Positions 1,418 to 16,208 of a stretch of DNA of 64,000 bases are shown here, one piece after another. The DNA is from Dehalococcoidales bacterium (GTDB taxonomy: Bacteria; Chloroflexota; Dehalococcoidia; Dehalococcoidales; UBA2162). The position numbers and the translations under genes are program-made. The stretch lies in NCBI GenBank assembly GCA_034416335.1, contig DAOULV010000023.1, positions 768 to 64,767 on the forward strand, read 5' to 3'. Below the pieces are notes generated by a model, which saw nothing but the letters and a program-made list of their open reading frames with translations, was not told where the DNA came from and did no database searches. Every line of letters begins with the position of its first letter. Within the stretch, counting starts at the first letter, position 1.

Positions 1418-1446
1418 TTGACATTTTTAAATCACCAAATTACAAT
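1418..1446 (+). promoter_or_regulatory. sigma70-like promoter of the toxin-antitoxin pair
   Basis: TTGACA (1418-1423), 17-nt spacer, TACAAT (1441-1446). This makes the ORF-track TTG start at 1418 unlikely. Confidence 0.5.
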
Positions 1447-1489
1447 GTGTATACGTACGGAAGTATGCACGTCTGGAAGGAGGTATGGC

Positions 1490-1753
1490 ATGAAACGAAA
1501 GATGACGGTAGTCTTTCACGATGAAGACCTTTATAAACAACTAAAAATCGAGGCGGTTAAAAGAAGCACCGCAGCGAGTGACATTGTGACAGACGCAGTT
1601 CGTGAGTGGTTGGAAAGTCGTGAAGATGCGGAACTTTTACCTGAGATTGAAGCCGCCCGAACCGAATGGAAAGAAAAAGGTGGCCGTCCCTGGTCCGAAG
1701 CTGAAAGAGAATTGGAAGAAACTATCATTCAGGGTGAAGGATTACCGAGGTAA
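1490..1753 (+). CDS. ribbon-helix-helix (CopG-like) antitoxin
   Basis: GGAAGGAGG SD then ATG 1490, in frame with ORF 1418..1753. The N-terminus MKRKMTVVFHDEDLYKQLKIEAVKRSTAASDIVTDAVREWL is RHH-like. It lies directly upstream of the RelE-like gene. Confidence 0.7.
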   Translation: MKRKMTVVFHDEDLYKQLKIEAVKRSTAASDIVTDAVREWLESREDAELLPEIEAARTEWKEKGGRPWSEAERELEETIIQGEGLPR

Positions 1754-1756
1754 AGC

Positions 1757-2026
1757 GTGTTCAGAATAGAGGTTTCGCCGGCCGCTGATCGGGATTTAGA
1801 TAAACTCAAAGGAAGGATACGTAGACAGGACTTTGAGCGTTTACGAACAGCAATTAGAAATCTAGCTGATGAACCTCGTCCCCAGGGTGTGAGAAAAATC
1901 AAAGGCGCTGAGAGGGCTTATCGCATCAGGATTGGTAGTTACAGAGTCGTGTATGAGGTATATAATGATGATAACTTGGTCCTGATTCTTCAGGTATCAC
2001 GAAGGAGTGAAACAACCTATCGATAA
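1757..2026 (+). CDS. RelE/ParE-family type II toxin
   Basis: ORF track 89 aa. RAYRIRIGSYRVVYEVYNDDNLVLILQVSRRSE is the typical RelE/ParE core. It starts 4 nt after the antitoxin stop. Confidence 0.8.
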   Translation: MFRIEVSPAADRDLDKLKGRIRRQDFERLRTAIRNLADEPRPQGVRKIKGAERAYRIRIGSYRVVYEVYNDDNLVLILQVSRRSETTYR

Positions 2027-2038
2027 CAGGTAGAATCA

Positions 2039-5000
2039 ATGAGTGATGAAGCTAAACAATTCAATAGCTACATTAGTTCTCTTCAAAAGGAATTAGCTAC
2101 AGGAAACACAACCGAGCATACTCATAGGCCCGCTTTTAAAACTTTAGTAGAGTCTCTTGATAAGGGAGTAACCGCAACAAACGAACCAGGCAGAATTAAA
2201 TGCGGCGCTCCCGATTTTGTTGTTACGAAAGGAGCCCTCACCATCGGTTATATCGAGGCTAAGGACATCGGTAAAAGTCTGGATGAAGCCGAGAAAACTG
2301 AGCAGTTAACCAGATACCGTGAATCTCTCAATAACCTAATTTTGACCAATTACCTGGAATTCAGATGGTACGTGGATGGTGACCTCCGGCTAGTCGCTAA
2401 TCTGGGAACTCCTGCGAAAGACGGAAAGATAAAACGCAGCAAGACAGGAGCCGAAGACGTCCATGAGCTAATAAGCGGATTTCTAGTAAACAAGGCAGAG
2501 GCTATCGGCACGCCGAAAGACCTAGCCATCCGGATGGCACACCTGGCACATATGATACGCAACCTGATTATCAATGCCTTTGAGAATGAGGAGGAGACCG
2601 GCGGTTTACATACTCAACTAGAGGCTTTCCGGGATAACTTAATTCCTGACCTATCTGTAGAGTATTTTGCGGATATGTATGCCCAGACCATAGCCTATGG
2701 GTTGTTCGCAGCCCGTTGTACATCCAACAATGGTACGTCTTTCACTCGACTTGATGCCGCTCAGAACCTACCGAAGACAAATCCTTTCCTGAGAAAGCTA
2801 TTTCAATACATAGCCGGCTACGACCTTGATGACCGCATTGCCTGGCTGGTGGATGACCTGGCACAGGTGCTGGCACAAGCGGATATGGAAGCCGTGCTCA
2901 AGGGCTTCGGCAAGCACACAGGTAAAGAAGACCCGGTAGTGCATTTCTACGAAACTTTCCTGAAAGAGTACGACCCTAAGATACGGGAAATGCGTGGCGT
3001 CTACTACACGCCGGAACCGGTAGTATCTTATATCGTGCGTTCCATCGATCATCTGTTGAAAACAAGGTTCAATAAACCGCAGGGGTTGGCTGATGAAAAG
3101 ACGCTGATTCTTGATCCCGCGGTGGGTACTGCCACATTCCTCTATACGGTGATTAACGAAATCTATCAGGCTAACACTGCAAAAGGACAGCAAGGTCTGT
3201 GGAATAATTACGTGGCGGAAAAACTCCTGCCGCGTATCTTCGGATTCGAACTGCTAATGGCACCTTATGCCGTAGCGCATCTGAAGCTGGGGCTTCTACT
3301 TCAAGATACAGGCTACGAGTTTAAGAGCGACCAGCGGCTTGGTGTTTACCTGACGAATACACTGGACGAAGCGATAAAACACTCCGAAGCACTCTTCGCA
3401 CAATGGATAAGCGAAGAAGCCAACGCTGCAGCCAGGATAAAGAAAGATGAACCTATTATGGTTGTGCTAGGTAATCCTCCCTATTCAAAACAGTCAGCAA
3501 ATAAAGGGAAATGGATTACAGAACTAATTAATGGTGTTATTGATAAAGATGGACATGAAATGAGTAAAGGATATAAAACTGTTGATGGTAAACCTATTAA
3601 AGAGAAGAATCCAAAATGGCTTCACGATGACTATGTGAAATTTATACGTTTTGGTCAATGGCGTATTGAACTTACAGGCCAAGGAATCCTCGGACTAATA
3701 ACCAATCATGGTTATCTAGATAACCCGACATTCCGTGGTATGCGGCAATCGCTAATAGAGACGTTTACTGATGTGTATATCCTGAACTTGCATGGTAATA
3801 CAAGGAAAAGAGAGGTTACTCCAGATGGCAGCAAGGATGAGAATGTTTTTGATATTCAACAAGGAGTAGCTATAACGTTATTCATTAAAGAAAGAGATGA
3901 AACTAAATCAGCAAAAGTTCATTATATGGATTTCTGGGGAATACGTGAAAAAAAGTACGCTGCTTTATATGAAGCTAGTATCGATACTCTCGAATGGAAG
4001 GAAATAGAACCGCACAGCCCTTATTATTTATTCTTGCCGACACATGAAACAGAGCTAGAGGAATATAACACTGGATGGAAACTTAATGAGATATTCCCTG
4101 CAAATAACGCGGGTTTTTATACATCGAGAGATAATTTAGTTATAGATTACGATAAAGAAGCACTACAAAATAGAATAATGAATTTTCTTGAAAATACTCT
4201 CAGTGATGATGAAATCCGAGAACGATATCAGGTAGTGGAAAAAGATGATTGGAAAATAAATACTACTCGTAAAATTATCCGCAAGGAAAAACATATTTCT
4301 AAGTTTTTTAAAAGGTGTCTTTACCGTCCTTTTGATACAAGGAATATATACTATCATAAAGCCCTGATACAAAGGCCACGATTTGAAATAATGAATCACA
4401 TGATTAGTGGTAATAACATTGGACTTATTTCTGCAAGAAGTAACAAAACATCCGAAATGACTCAGTTTTTTTGTTCATCTAATATAACTGAACTAAAGTG
4501 TGGTGAATATTCCATAGGATCTTACTTGTTCCCGCTTTACCTCTATCCAGTCGAAGGTGAGATGCAGTTTGATGGCGGCAAGCGACGTTCTAACCTTAAT
4601 CCAGAGTTTATAAAGGACGCGTCTGATAAGCTGAGACTAGAGTTTATCGAGGACGGAAGAGGAGACCTGGAGGAAACATTCGGACCGGAGGATATATTCA
4701 ACTATGCCTATGCCGTCTTCCACTCACCAACATACCGGACACGCTACGCCGAATTCCTCAAGATAGACTTCCCTCGCCTACCGCTAACCTCGGATAAGCA
4801 GCTTTTCAAGGCATTAGCAGAGAAAGGCGCCGAACTAGTGTCACTCCATCTCATGGAGTCACCCGCGTTGAATAATCTTATTACCAGTTATCCTGTAGCC
4901 GGTCCCAACGAAATGAAAAAGGTAACCTATGATGACAATAGCCAGCGTGTCTACATCAACAAAACGCAGTACTTTAAGGGTGTTCCGCCTGAAGTCTGGG

Positions 5001-5173
5001 CATTTCATGTAGGCGGGTACCAGGTATGCCAGAAATGGCTAAAAGACCGCAAAGGCAGAACACTCACCTACGATGAATTAACTCATTACCAGAAAATAGT
5101 CGTAGCGCTCAACGAAACTATTCGGTTGATGGCAGAGATAGACAAGTTGATACTGGAGTGGCCGTTAATGTAG
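2039..5173 (+). CDS. type IIG/ISP-like N6-adenine DNA methyltransferase with an N-terminal PD-(D/E)xK-like motif (no helicase)
   Basis: ORF track 1044 aa. Motif I is LDPAVGTATF and motif IV is NPPY (nt 3473-3484). The N-terminus has APD (2210-2215)...IEAK (2255-2263). The C-terminal YAYAVFHSPTYRTRYAEFLKIDFPRLP resembles the type ISP/IIG C-terminal domain. Confidence 0.8.
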   Translation: MSDEAKQFNSYISSLQKELATGNTTEHTHRPAFKTLVESLDKGVTATNEPGRIKCGAPDFVVTKGALTIGYIEAKDIGKSLDEAEKTEQLTRYRESLNNLILTNYLEFRWYVDGDLRLVANLGTPAKDGKIKRSKTGAEDVHELISGFLVNKAEAIGTPKDLAIRMAHLAHMIRNLIINAFENEEETGGLHTQLEAFRDNLIPDLSVEYFADMYAQTIAYGLFAARCTSNNGTSFTRLDAAQNLPKTNPFLRKLFQYIAGYDLDDRIAWLVDDLAQVLAQADMEAVLKGFGKHTGKEDPVVHFYETFLKEYDPKIREMRGVYYTPEPVVSYIVRSIDHLLKTRFNKPQGLADEKTLILDPAVGTATFLYTVINEIYQANTAKGQQGLWNNYVAEKLLPRIFGFELLMAPYAVAHLKLGLLLQDTGYEFKSDQRLGVYLTNTLDEAIKHSEALFAQWISEEANAAARIKKDEPIMVVLGNPPYSKQSANKGKWITELINGVIDKDGHEMSKGYKTVDGKPIKEKNPKWLHDDYVKFIRFGQWRIELTGQGILGLITNHGYLDNPTFRGMRQSLIETFTDVYILNLHGNTRKREVTPDGSKDENVFDIQQGVAITLFIKERDETKSAKVHYMDFWGIREKKYAALYEASIDTLEWKEIEPHSPYYLFLPTHETELEEYNTGWKLNEIFPANNAGFYTSRDNLVIDYDKEALQNRIMNFLENTLSDDEIRERYQVVEKDDWKINTTRKIIRKEKHISKFFKRCLYRPFDTRNIYYHKALIQRPRFEIMNHMISGNNIGLISARSNKTSEMTQFFCSSNITELKCGEYSIGSYLFPLYLYPVEGEMQFDGGKRRSNLNPEFIKDASDKLRLEFIEDGRGDLEETFGPEDIFNYAYAVFHSPTYRTRYAEFLKIDFPRLPLTSDKQLFKALAEKGAELVSLHLMESPALNNLITSYPVAGPNEMKKVTYDDNSQRVYINKTQYFKGVPPEVWAFHVGGYQVCQKWLKDRKGRTLTYDELTHYQKIVVALNETIRLMAEIDKLILEWPLM

Positions 5174-5322: not shown

Positions 5323-5351
5323 TTGACGTTTGTTGAACATAACATTATAAT
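5323..5351 (+). promoter_or_regulatory. sigma70-like promoter of the six-gene operon
   Basis: TTGACG (5323-5328), 17-nt spacer, TATAAT (5346-5351), in the 213-nt gap after the MTase. Confidence 0.55.
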
Positions 5352-5386
5352 CGAATACTTCACATATGTGGGGGGAGGTAAATAAT

Positions 5387-6286
5387 ATGCCAAACTACAT
5401 TAGAGATTTGTTTCTATATGTACCTGAGCCAGTATTAAGAAATTTATGCAAAGAGCATGGAATAAAGACTTCGGGATTAAAAAAACTGCAACTTGCCGAG
5501 CAGTTAGTAAAAGGGATTGAAACCCAAGAGTATGAGTCTATACTAGATCAACATCGTTATGCCGGAAGGGGAAGCGTGGTTTGGTTTAGACCTACTCGAA
5601 ATGGAGATACTTTCACAATATCCGATACAGAATTGCGAAACCATATACGTAACTATTGTAATGGTGATCCTTTTGAGAACGACCTTACACCAGAGCTTGA
5701 CCGGCATCCGAAAATAATAAGCTCTAGATTCCTCCATAATGATAAAATAATTATTTTAATGGCTCATATTGAGTTGTGGCCTCGAATTGTTGGCTTTGAA
5801 GTACAGGAAACGGAAGAGACGGTATTTTCTAGATTAATCATTCGACAAGGGTCTTTGTTTTTCGAGGCACGCGCTAGTCAATATAAAGCCGTTCTTATGG
5901 CAGAAGATATTGCGGCAGCACTGGATTGTACAGATATAGGTCAGATAACTCTCGGAGATGATGGTATGAATACTCTAATAGATCGACTGGGTGCATCGAC
6001 TATTGCAGCAAAACATAAACATAATTCAGGCGATTATGATACCACCGAAGTAGTTGTTAATCCTCAAATCGGAGATCTGAGAGACTCTTCACAATATTCC
6101 AATGAACTAAGCGGTCTAGAAGGACGTAGGAAACGAGTTTCTTTTGATTGCACTTTCGGTTCTGAGGTGGTAGCCGTAAGAGCGGAGCTTTATCCAAGAA
6201 CTGGGAATATAGTTTTTCGGTCATATGTAGATGAGAGGGTGTTAGATTATGTATTTGAAACAGTTAGACAAATTAAGGGATTATAA
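5387..6286 (+). CDS. hypothetical protein with an N-terminal SAP-like motif
   Basis: GGAGG 5374-5378 plus ATG 5387 is preferred over ATG 5366. LRNLCKEHGIKTSGLKKLQLAEQLV resembles a SAP DNA-binding motif. The rest is unassigned. Confidence 0.5.
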   Translation: MPNYIRDLFLYVPEPVLRNLCKEHGIKTSGLKKLQLAEQLVKGIETQEYESILDQHRYAGRGSVVWFRPTRNGDTFTISDTELRNHIRNYCNGDPFENDLTPELDRHPKIISSRFLHNDKIIILMAHIELWPRIVGFEVQETEETVFSRLIIRQGSLFFEARASQYKAVLMAEDIAAALDCTDIGQITLGDDGMNTLIDRLGASTIAAKHKHNSGDYDTTEVVVNPQIGDLRDSSQYSNELSGLEGRRKRVSFDCTFGSEVVAVRAELYPRTGNIVFRSYVDERVLDYVFETVRQIKGL

Positions 6287-6638
6287 CATTGCACAAGAGA
6301 CCATAGCTAAGCTAGATGAATATCTAAATAGCATCGCTGAAGAAGGAACAAAACGTTTCAGCCCCAATCACATGGCCGAACGGACTGGGCTTGACATTCA
6401 AATTTCTCAAACGATACTTCTCCGAACAGCTCAAATAGGAACAATTCAAACTTACTATGAAATAGAATGTCCTGAAGGTGATAGTGATTTTTTTGTTACG
6501 AGAATAGAAGATGTTGATTGGAATACTGAATGTGTATGTAGAGTGTGTGGCACAGAATATATACCAAATCCTTCTAATATTTGGGTGACGTTTAGTATTT
6601 TAGACCCTCCTTCCCCAAAAGCATTATGCCGCCTGTAA
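6249..6638 (+). CDS. hypothetical wHTH-like / Zn-ribbon-like protein
   Basis: ORF track 129 aa with a GAGGGTG SD before ATG 6249 and a 38-nt overlap with the upstream gene. It has an HTH-like SPNHMAERTGLDIQISQTILLRTAQ and a Cys cluster ECPEG...CVCRVCG. Confidence 0.45.
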   Translation: MYLKQLDKLRDYNIAQETIAKLDEYLNSIAEEGTKRFSPNHMAERTGLDIQISQTILLRTAQIGTIQTYYEIECPEGDSDFFVTRIEDVDWNTECVCRVCGTEYIPNPSNIWVTFSILDPPSPKALCRL

Positions 6639-7240
6639 GTGGTACTCACAAATCAGGTGGCAGCCTACAAGAACTAACTAAAAGACCAGAGTGGATAGAT
6701 TTCATCCCATCTCAGTTGGTGGCACTTGATAGAGATAAATACTCAGAATTACTAGGACGAGTTGAAGAATCACTCCTTTCAGGAACCAATAAAGAAAAAG
6801 GAGATAGTCTAGAAGAACTCGCTGATTTTCTATTAAGCTCAATCAAAGCATTTATTGTCGGGCAAAAAACCAACACATCAACCGGAGAGCTGGATAGATT
6901 CTTGAAAATAAGTAAGATTCCCGGGACATTTTTATGCGACTGGTCATTGTATATTCCCGTAGAATGTAAAAATTGGAATGATCCTGTGGGTGGGGATATT
7001 ATTGACCATCTTTATGCCAAAGCAAGGAATATGGATGCAAATCGAGGAATTTTATTTTCTCGTGAAGGTGTTACAGGCAATATGAGTCATGATGGTTGGA
7101 GACAAATCGTAAACTTATTTCAAAATTCCCGTTATATAACCATTGTTGTGGACATTGATGACCTAAGAAGTATCAACGCTGGAACTTGTCCATTGCATAT
7201 AATAGAGCAATGCCAGGAAAAAGTAATATTAAGCGCATGA
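6626..7240 (+). CDS. Mrr-like restriction endonuclease-domain protein
   Basis: ORF track 204 aa. GDSLEELADFLL...ELDRFL...YIPVECKNW...GILFSREGVT follows the Mrr_cat PD-(D/E)xK layout (D...ExK). It overlaps the upstream gene by 13 nt. Confidence 0.6.
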   Translation: MPPVSGTHKSGGSLQELTKRPEWIDFIPSQLVALDRDKYSELLGRVEESLLSGTNKEKGDSLEELADFLLSSIKAFIVGQKTNTSTGELDRFLKISKIPGTFLCDWSLYIPVECKNWNDPVGGDIIDHLYAKARNMDANRGILFSREGVTGNMSHDGWRQIVNLFQNSRYITIVVDIDDLRSINAGTCPLHIIEQCQEKVILSA

Positions 7241-7283: not shown

Positions 7284-8192
7284 ATGATGAACGAACTTAA
7301 CAGCTCACATTTAAATATAATCGACACCATTAAGCTCAGGGGAAGAGAATTTACAGATGATGAGTTGAGCACTATTCGTGAAAGTGTGATAAATAACTTT
7401 GACAAAGGTCGTACTTATATATCAAGAGATATTTGTAATACCCTCAATTGGAAACAACCAAATGGTTGGCTAAAAGATAGAGCATGCCGTGACGTGTTAC
7501 TTGAATTAGAAAAAAGAGAAATAATCAAACTTCCACCTCCTTTGGTAGTTAAGAACAACAAAAAATCTAACAAAGGCAATAGTATAAGTTATTTGAAAAA
7601 TTTTGATCTGAATACACCTATATCCGAATTCCCAAATTCTATTGAACTAGAATTTGCAAAAGGTAATATTCAAGAGAAAGTCTGGAATGAACTGGTCAAT
7701 CAATATCATTATTTGGGACATAGCACTACTGTTGGTAGGTGCATTAAGTATCTGATTAGATCTAACGACAGGTTACTAGGGGCACTCTCATTTTCATCTC
7801 CGGCATGGGAACTGGAGACTAGGAATAATATCCTTAACTCAATAGGTATTGAAAATCCAAGAGATTACACAATAAATAATTCTAGATTTCTCATTTTACC
7901 TATAGTGCAAGTAAATAATCTTGCATCACATGTGTTAGCTATAGCAGCAAAAAAGATTGTTAACGATTGGAAGGACTATTATTCCATAATTCCTCTGATT
8001 GCTGAAACTTTCGTTCAACCATCTCGATTCGATGGCACCTGCTATAAGGCAGCCAACTGGATAGAAATTGGTACAACAAAAGGTTATGCTAAAAGAGGAA
8101 GATTTTATCGAAACAGTCAGGAACCCAAGAAGATATTTTTGTATGGTTTAGATAAAAGAATACGAACAAAGTTGCTACAATTAGAGAAATAG
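7284..8192 (+). CDS. DUF4338-domain protein (DruA-like)
   Basis: ORF track 302 aa. QYHYLGHSTTVGRCIKYLIRSNDRLLGALSFSSPAW and ETFVQPSRFDGTCYKAANWIEIGTTKGY match my memory of the DUF4338 signature. Confidence 0.65.
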   Translation: MMNELNSSHLNIIDTIKLRGREFTDDELSTIRESVINNFDKGRTYISRDICNTLNWKQPNGWLKDRACRDVLLELEKREIIKLPPPLVVKNNKKSNKGNSISYLKNFDLNTPISEFPNSIELEFAKGNIQEKVWNELVNQYHYLGHSTTVGRCIKYLIRSNDRLLGALSFSSPAWELETRNNILNSIGIENPRDYTINNSRFLILPIVQVNNLASHVLAIAAKKIVNDWKDYYSIIPLIAETFVQPSRFDGTCYKAANWIEIGTTKGYAKRGRFYRNSQEPKKIFLYGLDKRIRTKLLQLEK

Positions 8193-8200
8193 GCATTATA

Positions 8201-9256
8201 ATGAATGCACGAGATACCTTAAAGAATGCGCGAGAATTTATTCGTAAACAAGGCGGGCAAATTGCACCGCTCCCTATAACTGAAGAGGAATTGGATCCTT
8301 CAGCTCAAGATGATCAGTCACTTGAAACTTTTTCCTTAGAACCTACAAATTGCCAGAATGTTGAGTATTCATATCCAGATGACTGTGGAAACAGCGAATT
8401 CTCCTTTTTTGAAGATGGTAAACAGAGAACTCTACATATAGGATTTATAGAAACCGAATATGGAGATCATACTGCTATAATTCCGGTACATTTTGTAGTT
8501 GTTGCCGCAGTAATCTTACAACGGCAAGAGCGTGAATTAAGCCTTTGGGATCAGCCAGTGATCCGAAGTGGAATATTGGTCGAAAAGTCACTTGTTCCGA
8601 ATACACATGCTCTTAATGAATTTGAAAATCTCGGATTAGAAATAATCGATACAGAAGGTCTTGGAGGAGACTACTACGTATTGAGGAATAAAGCTTTACA
8701 AAAAGCAAAATCTATGAGATTAGAAGTCGAGGATGAATTAATACGTCGATGGCGTACAAGCGATGATGCCCAAAACGGCTTTTTAATAGTAGATGGGACG
8801 TTGATGAATTTTCGCGACGAGGAGAATGTTAGGCATTGTATTGGTGTCAGTAAATCATTCGGTACTAGATATTTCACCACAAGTGAGCACAATCGTATAT
8901 TACAAATGCAAGAATTTCAAAGATCTTGGACATTTCGTTTCCACCATCCTGGAGATGCACTAAATTTGGGAGTACGTGACCGAGTAAGTTGGTACCTAAG
9001 ACTTAGAACTAAAACTAACGCCGATCCTGAGTTTGGTCTTATCCGAGTAGAGATAAGTCACTCTTATCATAACCAGGCAACCGATTATGCTAATCGATTC
9101 TCTAAATCATTAATATCAGAAAGGCTACCTACTTCCTATCCGGATAGTCGGTGGGATAAACTTTTATATCCTATTCAAGAGTGTGAGAGTTATTTGTCAA
9201 GTGTAATACCTTCAATTCAAACCATCGCTTCCAGTATGAAAGGAGCGCTGTCATGA
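8201..9256 (+). CDS. NurA-like nuclease
   Basis: ORF track 351 aa. NurA-type motifs are FEDGKQR, RLEVEDE, FLIVDGTL and GVSKSF. It sits directly upstream of, and overlaps, a HerA-like ATPase. Confidence 0.55.
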   Translation: MNARDTLKNAREFIRKQGGQIAPLPITEEELDPSAQDDQSLETFSLEPTNCQNVEYSYPDDCGNSEFSFFEDGKQRTLHIGFIETEYGDHTAIIPVHFVVVAAVILQRQERELSLWDQPVIRSGILVEKSLVPNTHALNEFENLGLEIIDTEGLGGDYYVLRNKALQKAKSMRLEVEDELIRRWRTSDDAQNGFLIVDGTLMNFRDEENVRHCIGVSKSFGTRYFTTSEHNRILQMQEFQRSWTFRFHHPGDALNLGVRDRVSWYLRLRTKTNADPEFGLIRVEISHSYHNQATDYANRFSKSLISERLPTSYPDSRWDKLLYPIQECESYLSSVIPSIQTIASSMKGALS

Positions 9257-11052
9257 CATATCAGTCGGTACCACAGGAAGAATCGCCTGAAATGCAAAAT
9301 GAAGAGTTTAGCCTAAGTAATTTTCTGAATATTAGCTACGGAGTCATTGGTAGAACTGCATCGACGAGATTTGAACCCAACACTTCCGGTAAATTCCACT
9401 TTTGGTTATCGAAACTTGCGCCTAATCTTCCAGCTGATGATGATCATGAAGTTCCTACTCCTAACGAAACTCAAGAAGTTGGTAGAGACCGGGAAGAAGT
9501 GGCGCCAATAGAAATAGGAAATATCGTGGCTGCATATTCAGATGATGAGGTAGATATTACATTTGGTACAGTAACAGAAATGAGATCATATAGCGATGTG
9601 GAGAGTTTCATTTCTGATTATTTAAGTCATGATTTTGGCGATGCCACTATTCAAGTTCCGACTGATATTACTGAAGTAATTGTTGTCACTTGTGCTGTAA
9701 TGCGTAATATATCACTTAAGACCAAGCCCGTGGGGAGATCTCGAGTATATTTCCCGAGTACATTAGGGATTCAATTTTCCTACGGAATCGTTGATGAAAA
9801 TGGTGAAATAACCTTTAGAGGTGCGCCTATACCCTTTGGAGTATTTGAAAACGGTGATGGCACTATTGCTCCAATCAGTGTAGACGAAAATTTCTTACTC
9901 GGACCGGAAGGCGCTCATCTTAATGTTTCTGGTATTTCAGGCTTAGCATCAAAAACTTCAGCAATTGAATTTACGATCAACTCTCTTCTCACTCACACTC
10001 GTAAGAGACTGGCTGTAGTGATGTTCAATGTTAAAAGTCAAGATTTACTTTACATCGATCAGGTGAATCCGAGACTCGCGGAGGAAGAATGGTCACAATG
10101 GGCATATGACATTTTAGGTGTACCTCAAGAACCATTTGCTAATGCAAGTTTCTATGCACCTGCAGATCCTAGAAATGCACCAGATGGGACACAGAGTTCC
10201 AGAAGTCTTGAAGTACAGCCCTTCGAATGGAATTTACCTATGATTTATCAGCAAATTCCAACTCTATTTGACCAGATGGATTGGGATGATAGGATGGAAG
10301 GAGTCTGGTTTACAATACAGGGCGATATAGAAAGTGGCCAAATTTTATCTTACGGGCAAATGGTTAATTCGGTTCAAAATCTTATCAATACAGCAACAAA
10401 TAATCAGCGACAATGGGTAAGAGGCAACCATATTTCTACTTGGCAAAAAATGTTATCACACTTAAGGCGATTTCCACAATCTTATCAAGGATTGATAACA
10501 CCTGCTGGTACGGGTAGGGACATACCATGGAATGAGTTACAGGAAAATAGTGTTTGGATCATCGACATTGAAATGCTCGCTGATCGAGGTCAAAGGCTGG
10601 TATTTGGTCGTTCAGTGTATGCTATTAGCGAGATGTTAGAATCTGATGATAGCAACCTAGACGCAGTTGTAGTATTTGTTGACGAATTAAACAAATTTGC
10701 TCCTTCAGGAAATGTTAGAACTCCACTGAAATCTAGGTTAATTGATATCACAGCAAGAGGACGAAGCATAGGAATGGTTCTTTTCGGTGCGGAACAATTT
10801 GTTTCATCAGTAGACAGAGAAATCGTCGAAAATAGTTCAACGTATCTATTCGGACACACTGAAACAAATGAACTACGTAGCCCTACATTTAGTGCGTTGA
10901 GTGATGAAGTAAAAACAAAATTGACGATGCTTCCTCAAGGACAACTGTTAATTAAATTTGCAAAATTCCCACAGCCAATATTCTTGAAATTCCCATTTCC
11001 CGCATGTTGTCCTGGTGATCAATATAGTTCAGAAGACGTGGGAGATCAGTAG
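9253..11052 (+). CDS. HerA/FtsK-superfamily (DUF87-like) ATPase
   Basis: ORF track 599 aa with an ATGA overlap with the NurA-like gene. It has a HAS-barrel-like N-terminus, a deviant Walker A SGISGLASKTS (nt 9931-9960), a Walker B VVVFVDE (nt 10665-10686) and ARGRSIGMVLFGAEQ. Confidence 0.65.
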   Translation: MTYQSVPQEESPEMQNEEFSLSNFLNISYGVIGRTASTRFEPNTSGKFHFWLSKLAPNLPADDDHEVPTPNETQEVGRDREEVAPIEIGNIVAAYSDDEVDITFGTVTEMRSYSDVESFISDYLSHDFGDATIQVPTDITEVIVVTCAVMRNISLKTKPVGRSRVYFPSTLGIQFSYGIVDENGEITFRGAPIPFGVFENGDGTIAPISVDENFLLGPEGAHLNVSGISGLASKTSAIEFTINSLLTHTRKRLAVVMFNVKSQDLLYIDQVNPRLAEEEWSQWAYDILGVPQEPFANASFYAPADPRNAPDGTQSSRSLEVQPFEWNLPMIYQQIPTLFDQMDWDDRMEGVWFTIQGDIESGQILSYGQMVNSVQNLINTATNNQRQWVRGNHISTWQKMLSHLRRFPQSYQGLITPAGTGRDIPWNELQENSVWIIDIEMLADRGQRLVFGRSVYAISEMLESDDSNLDAVVVFVDELNKFAPSGNVRTPLKSRLIDITARGRSIGMVLFGAEQFVSSVDREIVENSSTYLFGHTETNELRSPTFSALSDEVKTKLTMLPQGQLLIKFAKFPQPIFLKFPFPACCPGDQYSSEDVGDQ

Positions 11053-11147: not shown

Positions 11148-11972
11148 TTAAGGGAGGACCTTCTTCAGATACTCCTGCCAGTATCCTTCATCATCACCTA
11201 CTATCTCATGAAGCCAGCAATACATCATCAATATCTCGAATTCTTGTTTCCTGCCTTTTGTGAAAGCTTTTTTGGGCATTTTCGTATACAGTGAGTTGAT
11301 ATTAAACAGGTTCGTACCTTTCTTGAAATCGTATTCATACTTCATCCAAGGATCTTGTGTCGTTAATTTATGAGTGGATGGCCAGAGGTCCTTATTGTCC
11401 CAAAAATAATTCACCCAATTCTCTGCGAACGTCATAACGTTCACTCGATATTTCATCCATGTCTTATTAATCCAGTCATTGATGTCTTCAGAGAAAAAAG
11501 GTGACTCTGATCTCCAGGCTTGCTGACTCTGTATTCGATGATATTCTTTTATAAACAGGAACAGCATTTCGGTCTGGTCTCTGAGGAAAGGATACTTCTT
11601 AATCAACTTAGAATAACAGTCGTATGATAAGCTTCTGAATTCTTGGTCTGTGTTGAAGAGAAAGAAGAACACATTTTGATCTAGAATGAAACCAATAGCT
11701 CTATTAACATAGCTCCCATGGTCAGTGTTTATCCCAACAAGCCAATCCTGGATTTCTGGATCGTATTCCCGTAGCTGTTTTCGGTACTTTTCTATCTTCT
11801 CATTTTGTAATACGGTTTTATTCTCTGCAACCGTAATATTCAGGTAGTTATTAAAATATTCGAAAACATAGTTAACACATATCCGTAGATTTTCCGTTCG
11901 AGTATCGGCATCAAATTCATCAATCTTATCTTCTTTCTTACGGCGAATAATATAGTCTTCAAGTCTTAACAT
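11148..11972 (-). CDS. hypothetical Trp/Tyr-rich protein
   Basis: ORF track 274 aa with an AAGGAGA SD before ATG 11972. No family was recognised. Confidence 0.5.
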   Translation of the reverse strand: MLRLEDYIIRRKKEDKIDEFDADTRTENLRICVNYVFEYFNNYLNITVAENKTVLQNEKIEKYRKQLREYDPEIQDWLVGINTDHGSYVNRAIGFILDQNVFFFLFNTDQEFRSLSYDCYSKLIKKYPFLRDQTEMLFLFIKEYHRIQSQQAWRSESPFFSEDINDWINKTWMKYRVNVMTFAENWVNYFWDNKDLWPSTHKLTTQDPWMKYEYDFKKGTNLFNINSLYTKMPKKAFTKGRKQEFEILMMYCWLHEIVGDDEGYWQEYLKKVLP

Positions 11973-12989: not shown

Positions 12990-13637
12990 CTATACCCGGT
13001 ACCGAATATATGGGTAATTTTCAAGATAGAAACGTGCTAAGTGCGTGAGTGCATGGCTGCGTGATGGTTCTTCTTTTATTCTAGATATCAAATCCAGGGC
13101 GAGGTTTATTTCTCTGGCTTCAGATTCTTCTACCATAAAAGTAAAGCTGACGGGAATAGTGAACTTACCTCCTTCAGAAGTGTTTGATATGATTTCGTCT
13201 GCCTCAAGGTGTGATAGGCGTTTTAATTCCTCAATCTGTTTATTGTTATCTGGAAGAAGTGCCGTCAGTTCATCAGCTTCGTAGGATTTAAAAAGGTTTT
13301 CTAAAAGTATTGCTCTTCGCTCGGGGACTTCTTTACCAGACAGTCGATTAAGGGTTGCCAGATAAAGTCTTGTCTGAGAATCGTCAAGTTTCCAGACCAG
13401 GCAGTTTATTGTTCGATAACTAAGAGCGCGAAGTACACGTAAACGATTATGCCCATTGATAATCTGAAACTTACCTCTTTCGCTAGGATGCAGACGAACC
13501 GTCAACGGTTCATACCTGCCACTCCGCTCTATATGACGCCTTAGTTTACGGGCTGTTTCCGCATTCATAAAGTTACTGTTTTCTGGATGTTCGACCAATA
13601 ATTCAATAGGGATTTCCTGTATTTTTATATTATCCAT
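12990..13637 (-). CDS. ParB/Srx N-terminal-domain protein (ParB-like nuclease domain)
   Basis: ORF track 12990..13724. ATG 13637 is preferred because it avoids a 77-nt overlap. IPIELLVEHPENSN...YEPLTVR...FQIINGHNRLRVLRAL is the ParB-N pattern. Confidence 0.65.
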   Translation of the reverse strand: MDNIKIQEIPIELLVEHPENSNFMNAETARKLRRHIERSGRYEPLTVRLHPSERGKFQIINGHNRLRVLRALSYRTINCLVWKLDDSQTRLYLATLNRLSGKEVPERRAILLENLFKSYEADELTALLPDNNKQIEELKRLSHLEADEIISNTSEGGKFTIPVSFTFMVEESEAREINLALDLISRIKEEPSRSHALTHLARFYLENYPYIRYRV

Positions 13638-13647
13638 TTTATCTATT

Positions 13648-14595
13648 CTATTCGAATAAGTTTCCCTGAGAAGGAATCTCAGTGGAATTCGACCAGTGTC
13701 CGACAATATTACAGCTTCCGCCAATATCCGGGTTCATGCAGCCACAAACTGAGATCTCTATACCGTATATACCAGCGATTCTCTTTACATTCTCGTATAT
13801 TTCATTCCGCGTAGAGGGAGGTAGAGGGACGATAGAAGAATGAGGAGAAAGAACAGGCATACGCCCGGATAAATAGTGACTCATTATACGTTTGGTTATC
13901 GAACTGTCGTTTATATATTTTTGCAGGTTTCGAGCAATCATCGGACGTAGAAATAGTGTGCTTATTGCCGCTTTTTTTATGCCCGTATTAGCTAAAGTCT
14001 CTAATAGACTATTCATGGATACCTCAGTATCGGTAATTCCTGGTATTATGGGTATTATCCTAGCCTCAACTTGTATACCTGCATTGACCAGAGCTTCTAT
14101 TTGCTTGAGACGTACACTTACAGAAGCAGCATTGGGCTCAAAGATGCGTCTTACCGAATCATCTGCGGTGATTGTGCCTATCTGGACTCTGACGATATGA
14201 GCATGTTCTCGCAAAAGACCTAGAGTTTTCTCCGGTATTTTCCCCTTGGTTAAAAAAGCCACCCCAATATCTTTGGCAAGCAATAGATTTAAAACACGGT
14301 GACTTAGTTCCAGCACGTTCTCTAGAGGTTGAAAAAGGTCACTCGAGGGGCTGAAATACACTGCCTGCGGTAATTTCCTTTTTAATGAGAGTTCTTTTTC
14401 CAATTTTTCCAGGATGTTAACGTATAAAGAAACTTTGTTGTCGCCTGGATATACGGAGTATCCGCGAGCGTAGCAATAGAGACAACTATGAGCACATCCC
14501 AGGGTTAAATTAACTGTCGGAATATTAGACAGGCAGGAGAGACTGGATGGAGTGAGAATTGCAGATTTTCTTTCTGTATATTTCAACACTACCAT
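13648..14595 (-). CDS. radical SAM protein, COG1533 / SplB-like ('DNA repair photolyase') family
   Basis: ORF track 315 aa. The CxxxCxxC cluster GCAHSCLYCYARG lies near the N-terminus. Size and layout are typical of COG1533. Confidence 0.75.
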   Translation of the reverse strand: MVVLKYTERKSAILTPSSLSCLSNIPTVNLTLGCAHSCLYCYARGYSVYPGDNKVSLYVNILEKLEKELSLKRKLPQAVYFSPSSDLFQPLENVLELSHRVLNLLLAKDIGVAFLTKGKIPEKTLGLLREHAHIVRVQIGTITADDSVRRIFEPNAASVSVRLKQIEALVNAGIQVEARIIPIIPGITDTEVSMNSLLETLANTGIKKAAISTLFLRPMIARNLQKYINDSSITKRIMSHYLSGRMPVLSPHSSIVPLPPSTRNEIYENVKRIAGIYGIEISVCGCMNPDIGGSCNIVGHWSNSTEIPSQGNLFE

Positions 14596-16208
14596 ATGTA
14601 TTCACCTTTAAGATTCAGGTAATGCTCTTTAGACTTGTGTGAAAATATGTAAGCAAAGTTACCTCTAAGTTTTAAGGTTTTGGTCATATCACAGACCATA
14701 ATGTCATTAAGCGAAAAAGCAGTCATGTGATCGATGAGTTCACGAGAAGTCAGATCCATATCGATGATAATCGTGTAATCACAAACAGTCATGAGGCAAT
14801 CAATAATACTTCTCCCGTCTGTAGTTACCAGACATTCGGGGTTGAATTTCCGTGCGGGAAGTACGAAATCCTGGTTCTTTATATCTCCACATACTTTAGA
14901 ATCTAACAATGTCATGCTCTTATAGAACCGGGTAAGTGATACAAGAGAGTATATTTTTTCGTTCGTTCTATACTTACTTGAATTCGAAATTGCCAGATTG
15001 TCTACTCCCCCTCCGGTTGGAGACAGACTGTTTTCAGGAAGGACCGATTCGATGTTAGATGTAGGAAATAAATCTTTGAGCATCTCTGTTAACTTTTCAG
15101 AATCTAAATTTACAAAGAAGAAATTACCGCAGGTATCTAGCACTTTCGAGATCAAAGCAATTCTTATCCCGTCGGTTTTAGTTGACGGAAGTACCCGACT
15201 TAACCAATTCCTGTAGTCATCGCCAGTATATTCCAGACTACCAATTTACGCTTGCATATTATCTTGAAGAAAGAATCTGGCAGGATTAGGAGGTTCCAGA
15301 TCAACAGATCGCAGTCGGAATCTCGGTGTGAATCCGAATTGTCCTCCCAATTTCTGGATTTTACGGCAAAGTGTGGCAACAAGGCTGCTGCTTCCAGCTC
15401 CTATATCTAAAAACTCTATAGTAATATCATCATTGAAATATTTGTGCTCGGATTGGATTACAGGTTTAACAATACCCTGAAATATTTGTCTTCCTCGTTC
15501 GGCGGTCCATGGGTCGGTTGCATATTTAATACTATCTACAAATTTATTTAGTAGTTGGAAACTTTTCCCCCGCTTTTCTATAGACACTGCAGGATAGAAG
15601 AAGAGTGACATCGGAGAATCCTTAGATAGTGAATACTGCCTGTAATGAAAAAATAATTCCGGTTTCTTATCTCCATTAACTGTAATCACAGGAAGAAAAC
15701 GGGAGTCGTCTAAAGAGTTAGGAAACTTCAGTTTAGCTAAGAGATAGCAAGGATTCCGCGTTGTACAGATTCCGGCAGCGAGTATCTCAGCGTCGGAATC
15801 TGTTAAGATTATTCCGAAGCATTCGAAACCTAAAACCGCCCTAAGTGCGCTTAACCATGATTGAGTAGCGCAGGTTTCCGAATAATTTGATAGAAAAGTG
15901 TTGAGTAAAGAAAAGTAATGGTAACAGAAATCTTTCATTAATGAGGAACTAAATCCACAGTGAATATAATTTCTCCAAACAAAATGAAGCTTGTAAAGAT
16001 TATCCTCTAATTCCTTGTGTTTAAGTTCATACAATGGCTGCCAGTATGCATTCCAATCCTTTGTTTCTAAAATAAACCTTCCACTATTAAAAACCTTAAC
16101 ACTGGTAAGGATAGTATCTTTCTCCAGGACTGACAAAAGTAGTCCCCTATTACGGACTCTTATAAGATTATTTAGCGGTATCGCTGCTGTTTTCATTTCC
16201 GATTCCAA
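14589..16208 (-). pseudogene. about 539-codon class I SAM-methyltransferase-like gene interrupted by a single in-frame TAA
   Basis: ORFs 15246..16208 and 14589..15155 share one frame and are separated only by TAA 15246-15248, with 30 sense codons bridging them. Motif I IEFLDIGAGSS and RSVDLEP lie just before the stop. The 3' end overlaps the rSAM start (ATGGTAG). Confidence 0.55.

Follow-up and report, generated by a model that had tools for sequence, protein, structure and literature searches.

A mobile three-gene cassette coupling a putative Mom-like GNAT of the DruA family to a predicted NurA-HerA pair: a candidate anti-phage system

We analysed a stretch of 64,000 nucleotides (nt) from a Dehalococcoidales bacterium (contig DAOULV010000023.1), referred to here as the window. 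Three adjacent genes in it, g1, g2 and g3, form a self-contained, horizontally mobile operon. The first encodes a DruA-family (DUF4338) protein, and the other two encode a predicted nuclease and ATPase of the NurA-HerA type. It is quite probable that this operon is a mobile conflict or defence cassette. More precisely, it may be a modification-restriction-type anti-phage or anti-plasmid system analogous to TdpABC, a reading to which we give a probability of about 0.4. The cassette is apparently an undescribed candidate anti-phage system. Its genes are the following:

7284 to 8192, plus strand: g1, the first cassette gene, a DruA-family (DUF4338) protein of 302 amino acids
8201 to 9256, plus strand: g2, a NurA-fold nuclease (predicted) of 351 amino acids
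9253 to 11052, plus strand: g3, a bacterial-type HerA ATPase (by sequence) of 599 amino acids

A gap of 8 nt separates g1 from g2, and g2 overlaps g3 by 4 nt (ATGA). The original prediction for this region, made from the letters alone, had proposed these three open reading frames (ORFs). All three, and every motif that it quoted, are present where it placed them. They are not chance ORFs, given the Pfam DruA score of g1, the homologue clusters of g2, the HerA match of g3 and the same gene order in dozens of unrelated contigs.

The three genes are in strict synteny. Alignment-based scans with g2 gave 49 loci, 7 from genomes and 42 from metagenomes. A single-sequence g2 scan of genome contigs yielded nothing, since its patterns were too specific, and it was the alignment-based scan that recovered the loci. 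We took as informative those loci with at least 300 nt of sequence on the side scored. By this measure g1 lies 5' of the NurA gene in 38 of 40 loci, and HerA lies 3' of it in 39 of 39. Only g1, g2 and g3 recur at the 49 loci, always in the same order, and no flanking gene is common to them (tblastn with all window proteins). The contigs are labelled Gammaproteobacteria, Chloroflexota, Anaerolineaceae, Leptolyngbya, Acidobacteriota, delta proteobacterium and Chloroflexia. They cover the phyla Chloroflexota, Acidobacteriota, Proteobacteria and Cyanobacteria. The cultured isolate Kallotenue papyrolyticum (JAGA01000002, locus L051) also carries the cassette, with an integrase adjoining it. The triad is therefore conserved across phyla and is not peculiar to one genome, the doubt that the original prediction had raised about itself.

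The three genes are organised as an operon. In most of the 19 full cassettes, the gene junctions overlap or lie within a few bases. Between cassettes, protein identity rises and falls together for the three genes, with correlations of r = 0.94 for g2-g3, 0.89 for g1-g3 and 0.86 for g1-g2. Between distant phyla the identity is 55-69%, and the distribution is patchy. In the window, the GC content is 0.36-0.40 between about 4 and 16 kilobases (kb) and about 0.5 elsewhere, so the cassette sits within a low-GC stretch. The identity across phyla, the unrelated flanks and the low-GC setting together argue for horizontal transfer. Some copies have decayed. In one of them, the NurA gene is split by a 1.6-kb insertion (L042:362-2089), and in another HerA is split into two ORFs (L006:11001-12788). 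We found g2 neither in a collection of 72,556 plasmids nor in 2.9 million viral contigs; g1 has only distant matches in the plasmid and viral collections.

Judged by its sequence, g3 is a bacterial-type HerA. A phmmer search of the PDB matches it to HerA of Deinococcus radiodurans (7f6d_B) with E 3.1e-34, in an alignment that begins at g3 residue 194. This match to a solved bacterial HerA bears out the assignment proposed before. The ATPase motifs lie as follows:

9928 to 9960, plus strand: Walker A of g3, SGISGLASKTS (residues 226-236)
10666 to 10695, plus strand: Walker B of g3, VVVFVDELNK (residues 472-481)

The segment VVVFVDE spans residues 472-478, ARGRSIGMVLFGAEQ spans residues 501-515, and an RGRS motif occupies residues 502-505. 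The patterns SGISGxAxKTS, VxVxxDELNK and RGRSxG are aligned between g3 and D. radiodurans HerA. Both proteins have the Walker A consensus N[VI]SGISG[LV]A[ST]KTS. Hence the Walker A of g3, which had been called deviant, is typical of bacterial HerA. The Pfam DUF87 and HerA models do not match g3. In PADLOC, it has weak matches to mad8 (3e-7, in the C-terminal ATPase part) and to HerA (2e-3).

The identification of g2 as a NurA-fold nuclease is supported by its predicted fold. By sequence, g2 has no match in Pfam (E <= 0.01), PADLOC, NCBIfam, PHROGs or the PDB. We built an AlphaFold2 model (predicted local distance difference test, pLDDT, 82; predicted template modelling score, pTM, 0.81) and compared it with the PDB by Foldseek. 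The model matches D. radiodurans NurA from the HerA-NurA complex (7f6d_G) with E 1.4e-12 and template modelling (TM) scores of 0.56/0.58. It likewise matches the Thermotoga NurA-like protein TM1739 (1zup_A; E 2.8e-10, TM 0.54/0.63) and a chain of the TdpAB-DNA complex (8wfd_G; E 2.6e-4). The next unrelated fold follows at E 0.02. The g2 family profile has a sole match in the PDB, the NurA chain 7f6d_H (E 0.086). The NurA assignment of g2 thus holds through the fold matches to 7f6d_G and 1zup, and not through a sequence profile.

The motifs on which that assignment had been based are FEDGKQR (residues 70-76), RLEVEDE (173-179), FLIVDGTL (194-201) and GVSKSF (215-220). Residues D72 (FFEDGxQRT), E177 and D198 (VDGTLMN), in D-G-type motifs, are invariant among 30 homologues and are candidates for the acidic metal-binding residues of a NurA. 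Further invariant residues are S217-K218, H248 and E284. Homologues of g2 at 55-86% identity form more than 200 clusters. At window positions 8279-8314 (g2 residues 27-38), there is also an invariant acidic segment, SEEE[LI]NPxxQDD, in a loop that is unstructured in the AlphaFold model (pLDDT below 50). It resembles a short partner-docking motif, possibly for HerA or for the Lys-rich linker of g1.

The g1 protein matches Pfam DruA (PF14236) with 100.3 bits and E 1.5e-28, above the gathering cutoff of 27 bits. Residues 75-274 align to profile positions 2-226 of 297, and the DUF4338 assignment is confirmed. The signature motifs QYHYLGHSTTVGRCIKYLI and ETFVQPSRFDGTCYKAANWIEIGTTKGY correspond to residues 140-158 and 241-268. 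None of the PADLOC Druantia models matches g1, and a sequence search of the PDB gave nothing useful for it. In PHROGs, it matches family 1384, "Mom-like DNA modification protein" (E 2.3e-7). We modelled g1 with AlphaFold2 from 36 homologues (pLDDT 83). The model has a small N-terminal domain, a Lys-rich linker (residues 86-100) and a C-terminal GNAT fold:

7329 to 7538, plus strand: g1 N-terminal domain (residues 16-85), a beta-hairpin and three helices in the model
7611 to 8153, plus strand: g1 GNAT-fold, Mom-like domain (residues about 110-290), the putative catalytic domain

A Foldseek search of the PDB with this model gave 20 matches at E <= 1e-3, and all 20 are GNAT-fold enzymes (probability 1.00). 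The matches lie at E about 1e-4, with ordinary acetyltransferases at the top. Phage Mu Mom (8bv8) ranks fourth and has the best query-normalised TM-score (0.38). Its BFVD matches include a Mom from a phage, along with several phage proteins whose annotation is endonuclease-like or homing endonuclease. The GNAT nature of DUF4338 had already been stated by the Aravind group (PMC10853773).

The conserved residues of the GNAT domain are H142-Y143, R201, S215, E241, Y254 and N258-W259. In 58 diverse g1 relatives (30-60% identity), H142, R201, S215 and E241 are invariant and Y254 nearly so. A narrow g1 profile aligned only about 30 residues of Mom, and a broader alignment was used instead. In this profile alignment, g1 H142-Y143 corresponds to Mom H58-Y59 (numbering of the Mom paper), S215 to S124 and Y254 to Y159. 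Spacing alone suggests R201 and R248 as equivalents of Mom R111 and R151, which the alignment does not fix. Mom needs H58/Y59, R111, S124, D149, R151 and Y159 for its activity, and it modifies the N6 of adenine in double-stranded DNA using glycyl transfer RNA (Gly-tRNA) (PMC13219725). The acyl-coenzyme A (CoA) loop, Q/R-x-x-G-x-G/A after strand beta4, is absent in g1, where the sequence reads V-N-N-L-A-S-H-V (residues 209-216). Mom is also without this loop and has R-N-S-E-S-R at that position. On these sequence features, g1 appears specifically Mom-like rather than a generic GNAT.

The N-terminal domain of g1 contains a near-invariant motif, W-x-Q-P-N-G-W-L-K-D-R-A-C-R-D. It is kept in the cassette of the window (type A), in the two further cassette types described next and in transposase-linked relatives. 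This domain probably binds nucleic acid.

The g1 gene is re-used as a module. Proteins of the g1 type, 51-55% identical and with the same N-terminal domain, precede two further gene pairs. In type B (L056:8001-11967; also L057, L060 and L061), a g1-type GNAT of 54% identity is followed by a 382-residue NurA and a DUF87-type HerA. The 382-residue protein has the canonical NurA motifs CGVDGS and FLDGSL (Pfam NurA, E 1.4e-3), and its HerA is barely similar to g3 in sequence. In type C (L058:8001-12741; also L059), a g1-type GNAT of 53% identity is followed by a kinase-AAA fusion and a CARF-like protein. The fusion joins a Ser/Thr kinase to an ORC/Cdc6-like AAA+ domain in 857 residues (PADLOC CARF6 STK_AAA, E 8e-30), and its CARF-like partner has 368 residues. 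The type B and type C g1 proteins nest among those of type A in a simple neighbour-joining tree. A PIN/MazE pair adjoins the type B cassette of L056.

Beyond these cassettes, the g1 architecture is present in 873 clusters (50% identity) at E <= 1e-30 and in 9,398 at E <= 1e-3. The original prediction knew DUF4338 only from Druantia. The family in fact has more than 9,000 such clusters, many of them transposase-linked. About one fifth of the best 150 family representatives have at least 500 residues. Among ten long relatives scanned, DDE transposases account for 9 of the 9 fusion partners identified. They belong to at least five families (Tn5/IS4-like, DDE_Tnp_1, IS66, IS630-like and ISAs1):

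P0279, P0283, P0290, P0292, P0294, P0297, P0341, P0351, P0365, L065:3283-5858, L066:3253-5861 and L054:4971-6305: DruA-family module fused to, or following, a DDE transposase

Stand-alone relatives of about 285 residues lie mostly on contigs of 1-5 kb, as repeats do. In two genomes, a stand-alone relative comes directly after an IS66 transposase with a 4-nt overlap. A Thiodictyon plasmid presents the same transposase-linked theme. A search for inverted repeats around a stand-alone DUF4338 gene in Thiodictyon found nothing convincing. As far as we found, insertion sequences with a Mom-like GNAT as accessory factor are undescribed. Other relatives are fused to phage endonuclease-like proteins. 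Overall, the partners of the g1 family that we checked are largely DNA-acting enzymes.

TdpABC is the closest functional precedent for a NurA/HerA-type pair with a modifier, and the original prediction did not mention it. It was reportedly described by An and colleagues in Nature Chemical Biology in 2025 as a phosphorothioate-dependent, restriction-modification-like system of thermophiles. There, one modification gene is likewise linked to a two-protein ATPase-nuclease complex (PDB 8wfd), in which we take TdpA to be HerA-like. The g2 model matches chain 8wfd_G, and the proposed logic is alike, with a self mark restraining a DNA-degrading motor. Nevertheless, g3 has no sequence similarity to any 8wfd chain (E up to 10), and for g2 the NurA of D. 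radiodurans is a far closer match. Because the cassette has a Mom-like GNAT as its putative modifier instead of TdpC, the mark could not be a phosphorothioate of the Tdp route. With the GNAT g1 as its sole conserved third gene, the cassette does not belong to TdpABC. Two papers class TdpABC among the phosphorothioate-based restriction-modification systems, the mark being the work of tdpC alone (PMC12914056, PMC13223576).

The best structural and sequence matches of g2 and g3 are the D. radiodurans NurA-HerA complex (7f6d) and TM1739 (1zup). The adjacent-gene arrangement is also alike, although D. radiodurans NurA is only about 16% identical to g2. In contrast to the Deinococcus and archaeal pairs, for which a repair role is reported, the pair of the cassette is preceded by a GNAT gene, lies in islands and moves horizontally.

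Calling g1 a Druantia-type component was right in so far as it belongs to the Pfam family named after DruA of Druantia type I. There is no Druantia system here. DruB, DruC, DruD and DruE are missing, the PADLOC DruA models remain unmatched, and no PADLOC Druantia model matches g1-g3 or six neighbours. The partner is NurA-HerA and not the DruE helicase, and the g1 N-terminal domain lies outside the Pfam DruA match. With Mu Mom (8bv8), g1 has in common the GNAT fold and the motifs H-Y, S (Mom S124) and Y-x-A-[AS]-N-[WF]-x-x-[IV]-G. However, it is without the helix-turn-helix (HTH)-like insertion of Mom (residues about 175-209) and has its N-terminal domain instead. Mu Mom serves a phage in counter-defence; g1 is encoded on a chromosome and linked to a nuclease.

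Two further comparisons concern HerA. Sir2-HerA and DUF4297-HerA (the "Her" systems of Gao) are reportedly also built on a HerA hexamer controlling a partner effector. In the cassette the effector would be NurA, with a third gene, and g3 matches the PADLOC HerA models only marginally. No Sir2 or DUF4297 match was found with Pfam or PADLOC in the cassette or its neighbours. MADS was also rejected. Its detection model requires mad6, mad7 and mad8, and the single match is the weak one of g3 to mad8 (E 3e-7).

The cassette as such is absent from PADLOC 2.0, which has no model for g1 or g2. Current detection tools would miss it, since two of its three genes are without a PADLOC model. In the literature searched, NurA and Druantia never occur in one paper, and no paper connects DUF4338 with a NurA-HerA pair, which is not proof of absence. 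The sole paper found on both DUF4338 and HerA deals with DndF fusions. The pairing was called undescribed in the original prediction, and both PADLOC 2.0 and this literature are consistent with that. The cassette lies outside any described NurA-HerA-containing defence system.

The modification-restriction reading supposes the following mechanism. From homology with the solved D. radiodurans complex, a hexameric HerA motor would carry a NurA dimer. NurA-HerA would load on free double-stranded DNA ends, thread the DNA with ATP and degrade it. The natural substrate of such an end-loading machine would be linear foreign DNA, such as that injected by a phage. We infer that g1 puts a Mom-type base mark on resident DNA, and this mark would stop or exclude NurA-HerA. 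The same logic applies in TdpABC, where phosphorothioate marks made by TdpC reportedly restrain TdpAB.

A DNA-marking role of g1 is favoured by its Mom affinity, the missing CoA glycine loop, the DNA-acting partners and the adenine signal of Druantia type I. In Escherichia coli, Druantia type I, with DruA and without a methyltransferase, brings about a PacBio "m6A" signal at CAGCTGNC that is otherwise not there. A phage that modifies its own adenines escapes this system (bioRxiv 10.1101/2024.04.14.589459). This signal would fit DruA-family proteins as adenine-N6 modifiers. A bolder view takes the DruA family as a large overlooked class of Mom-like enzymes that mark adenine in cellular DNA with an acyl- or aminoacyl-derived group. 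The cassette would then be a restriction-modification system with a GNAT as its "methylase" and NurA-HerA as its "restriction enzyme". We regard this wider view as somewhat doubtful.

Several observations weigh against the modification-restriction reading. The match of g1 to Pfam Mom (PF25680) is sub-threshold, with a score of 20.9 bits where the cutoff is 27.1 (E 3.2e-4). The hhalign comparison of the g1 family with Mu Mom is weak, with E 0.02 over 114 columns (range 0.02-0.05). The essential D149 of Mom is aligned to g1 Q245, a position that varies among Q, E and D within the cassette clade but is D in the wider family, and the alignment fixes no counterpart of Mom R111. Restriction-modification modifiers have variable specificity domains, but the N-terminal domain of g1 hardly varies. 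Most close g1 relatives outside the cassette sit in insertion sequences and not in defence systems, and the defence-island association is anecdotal. No DUF4338 protein is known to modify DNA. Moreover, DUF4338 relatives are fused to DndF, and the Aravind group reads the DUF4338 domain of this fusion as a protein-directed co-effector (PMC10853773).

Two loci keep NurA-HerA without g1, and a strictly protective modifier should not be dispensable. One of them (L008:9072-12827) has the most divergent pair, 51% and 57% identical, with an unrelated 255-residue ORF instead of g1. This pair belongs to an integrative element that also encodes relaxase-like, HTH and integrase proteins. At the other (L024:324-1405), an IS3 element lies immediately 5' of NurA, where g1 would be.

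These two loci are also consistent with a different kind of system, a sensor/effector of the abortive-infection type, which we consider unlikely. NurA-HerA would sense or process invading DNA. The GNAT would acylate a protein or an aminoacyl-tRNA (TacT/AtaT-type), or it would switch NurA-HerA by acylation, and there would be no DNA mark. GNATs mostly act on proteins, small molecules or tRNA, and the ordinary acetyltransferases at the top of the g1 fold matches suit such a role. The co-effector of the DndF fusion, as read by the Aravind group, may target proteins. The type C pairing of g1 with a kinase-AAA and CARF-like module is typical of signalling-type defence. In Sir2-HerA and DUF4297-HerA, HerA reportedly activates its partner effector. 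The sequence affinity of g1 tells against a protein or tRNA target, since in two independent libraries it is specifically to the DNA modifier Mom, whose catalytic Ser, His-Tyr and Tyr are kept. Likewise, the partners of the family are mostly DNA-acting (transposases, endonuclease-like proteins and NurA-HerA), and the adenine signal of Druantia type I is hard to explain with a protein target.

Less likely again is a role in mobile-element biology. The g1 protein would be an accessory factor, and NurA-HerA would process or pump DNA for the transfer, integration or maintenance of an element. In other mobile systems, DNA transfer is powered by HerA/FtsK ATPases. DDE transposases of at least five families carry the full-length g1 architecture as a fusion or have it directly behind them, and its stand-alone relatives on contigs of 1-5 kb would agree with this role. 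Integrases adjoin the loci L051 and L008, and the cassette has moved between phyla. Conversely, the 49 loci have only the three genes in common, and no gene for a transposase, a relaxase or an integrase recurs beside them. The 43 nt upstream and 95 nt downstream, between the cassette and the neighbouring ORFs of the window, leave little room for element ends. Its absence from the viral contigs and from the 72,556 plasmids also speaks against an element of its own; the cassette behaves as island cargo, like defence genes.

Finally, a housekeeping end-resection or repair machine, controlled by the attached acyltransferase or by a transcriptional regulator with a winged HTH-like N-terminus, is quite improbable: g3 and g2 are closest to D. 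radiodurans HerA and NurA, HerA-NurA is described as an end-resection complex (PMC12977600), and g1 is a first gene with a small helical N-terminal domain, like many operon regulators, but the patchy distribution, the 55-69% identity between distant phyla (horizontal transfer), the low-GC island beside restriction-modification and toxin-antitoxin genes, the copies decayed or interrupted by insertion sequences and the full set of invariant catalytic-type residues in g1, needless for a pure regulator, all stand against it.

The cassette is found in defence-type neighbourhoods. In the window, a ribbon-helix-helix antitoxin-like ORF and a ParE toxin lie 5' of it (1418-2026). Directly after ParE there is a type IIG restriction-modification enzyme of 1044 residues (PADLOC, 1056 bits) with a type ISP C-terminal specificity domain; the pair and the enzyme span 1418-5173. 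At L007, the neighbours are PsyrT and a type IV restriction endonuclease-like protein. At L046, they are a HamB-like helicase and a type III restriction endonuclease-like protein. Integrases adjoin the cassette at L051 and the NurA-HerA pair at L008. The defence-island context named in the original prediction is therefore seen in the window, with the type IIG enzyme and the ParE pair 5' of the cassette and its low-GC setting, and at several other loci.

Three overlapping ORFs of 306, 129 and 204 residues (5366-7240) lie immediately 5' of g1. They were rejected as cassette members because they are not conserved at any other locus. The 204-residue ORF has a D...E-x-K-like motif (IPVECKNW) and matches PHROG 6350, a family of unknown function. 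At 5323-5351 lies the region's best sigma-70-like site (11/12), from which these ORFs may be co-transcribed with the cassette in this genome. A scan of promoters and terminators found no more sites than in shuffled sequence.

On the minus strand, a 274-residue ORF (11148-11972) is convergent with g3. It is not conserved beside the cassette at other loci and has no match in Pfam, PADLOC, NCBIfam or PHROGs. Further on, also on the minus strand and inside the low-GC island, a cluster (12990-16208) encodes a ParB_N-domain protein, a radical SAM enzyme and two ORFs without a family match. The radical SAM enzyme has a weak spore-photoproduct-lyase-like match, and the cluster is possibly a further conflict module. 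In the window as a whole, scans for Rfam families and tRNAs returned nothing. At other loci, an ORF of about 337 residues without a Pfam match lies directly 3' of HerA (L017:5035-6045, L026:9346-10362, L032:6553-7650 and L046:8406-9419). It may be the fourth gene of one cassette subtype.

If the cassette protects against phages, it would be a compact three-gene addition to the defence catalogue, already spread across many phyla. It would also be the second case, after TdpABC, of a NurA/HerA-type pair, classically a repair machine, acting as the destructive arm of a self/non-self system. With one enzyme and one nuclease complex, the cassette offers a simpler test bed for DruA-family biochemistry than the five-gene Druantia. 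It makes a concrete prediction, a g1-dependent N6-adenine adduct that blocks NurA-HerA. The presence of the same module on many insertion sequences extends the reach of the family well beyond defence. Should the wider view of the DruA family as adenine-marking enzymes be true, the adenine signal of Druantia type I would no longer lack an explanation, and a new link between DNA base acylation and transposition would be indicated by the capture of the module in at least five families of transposases.

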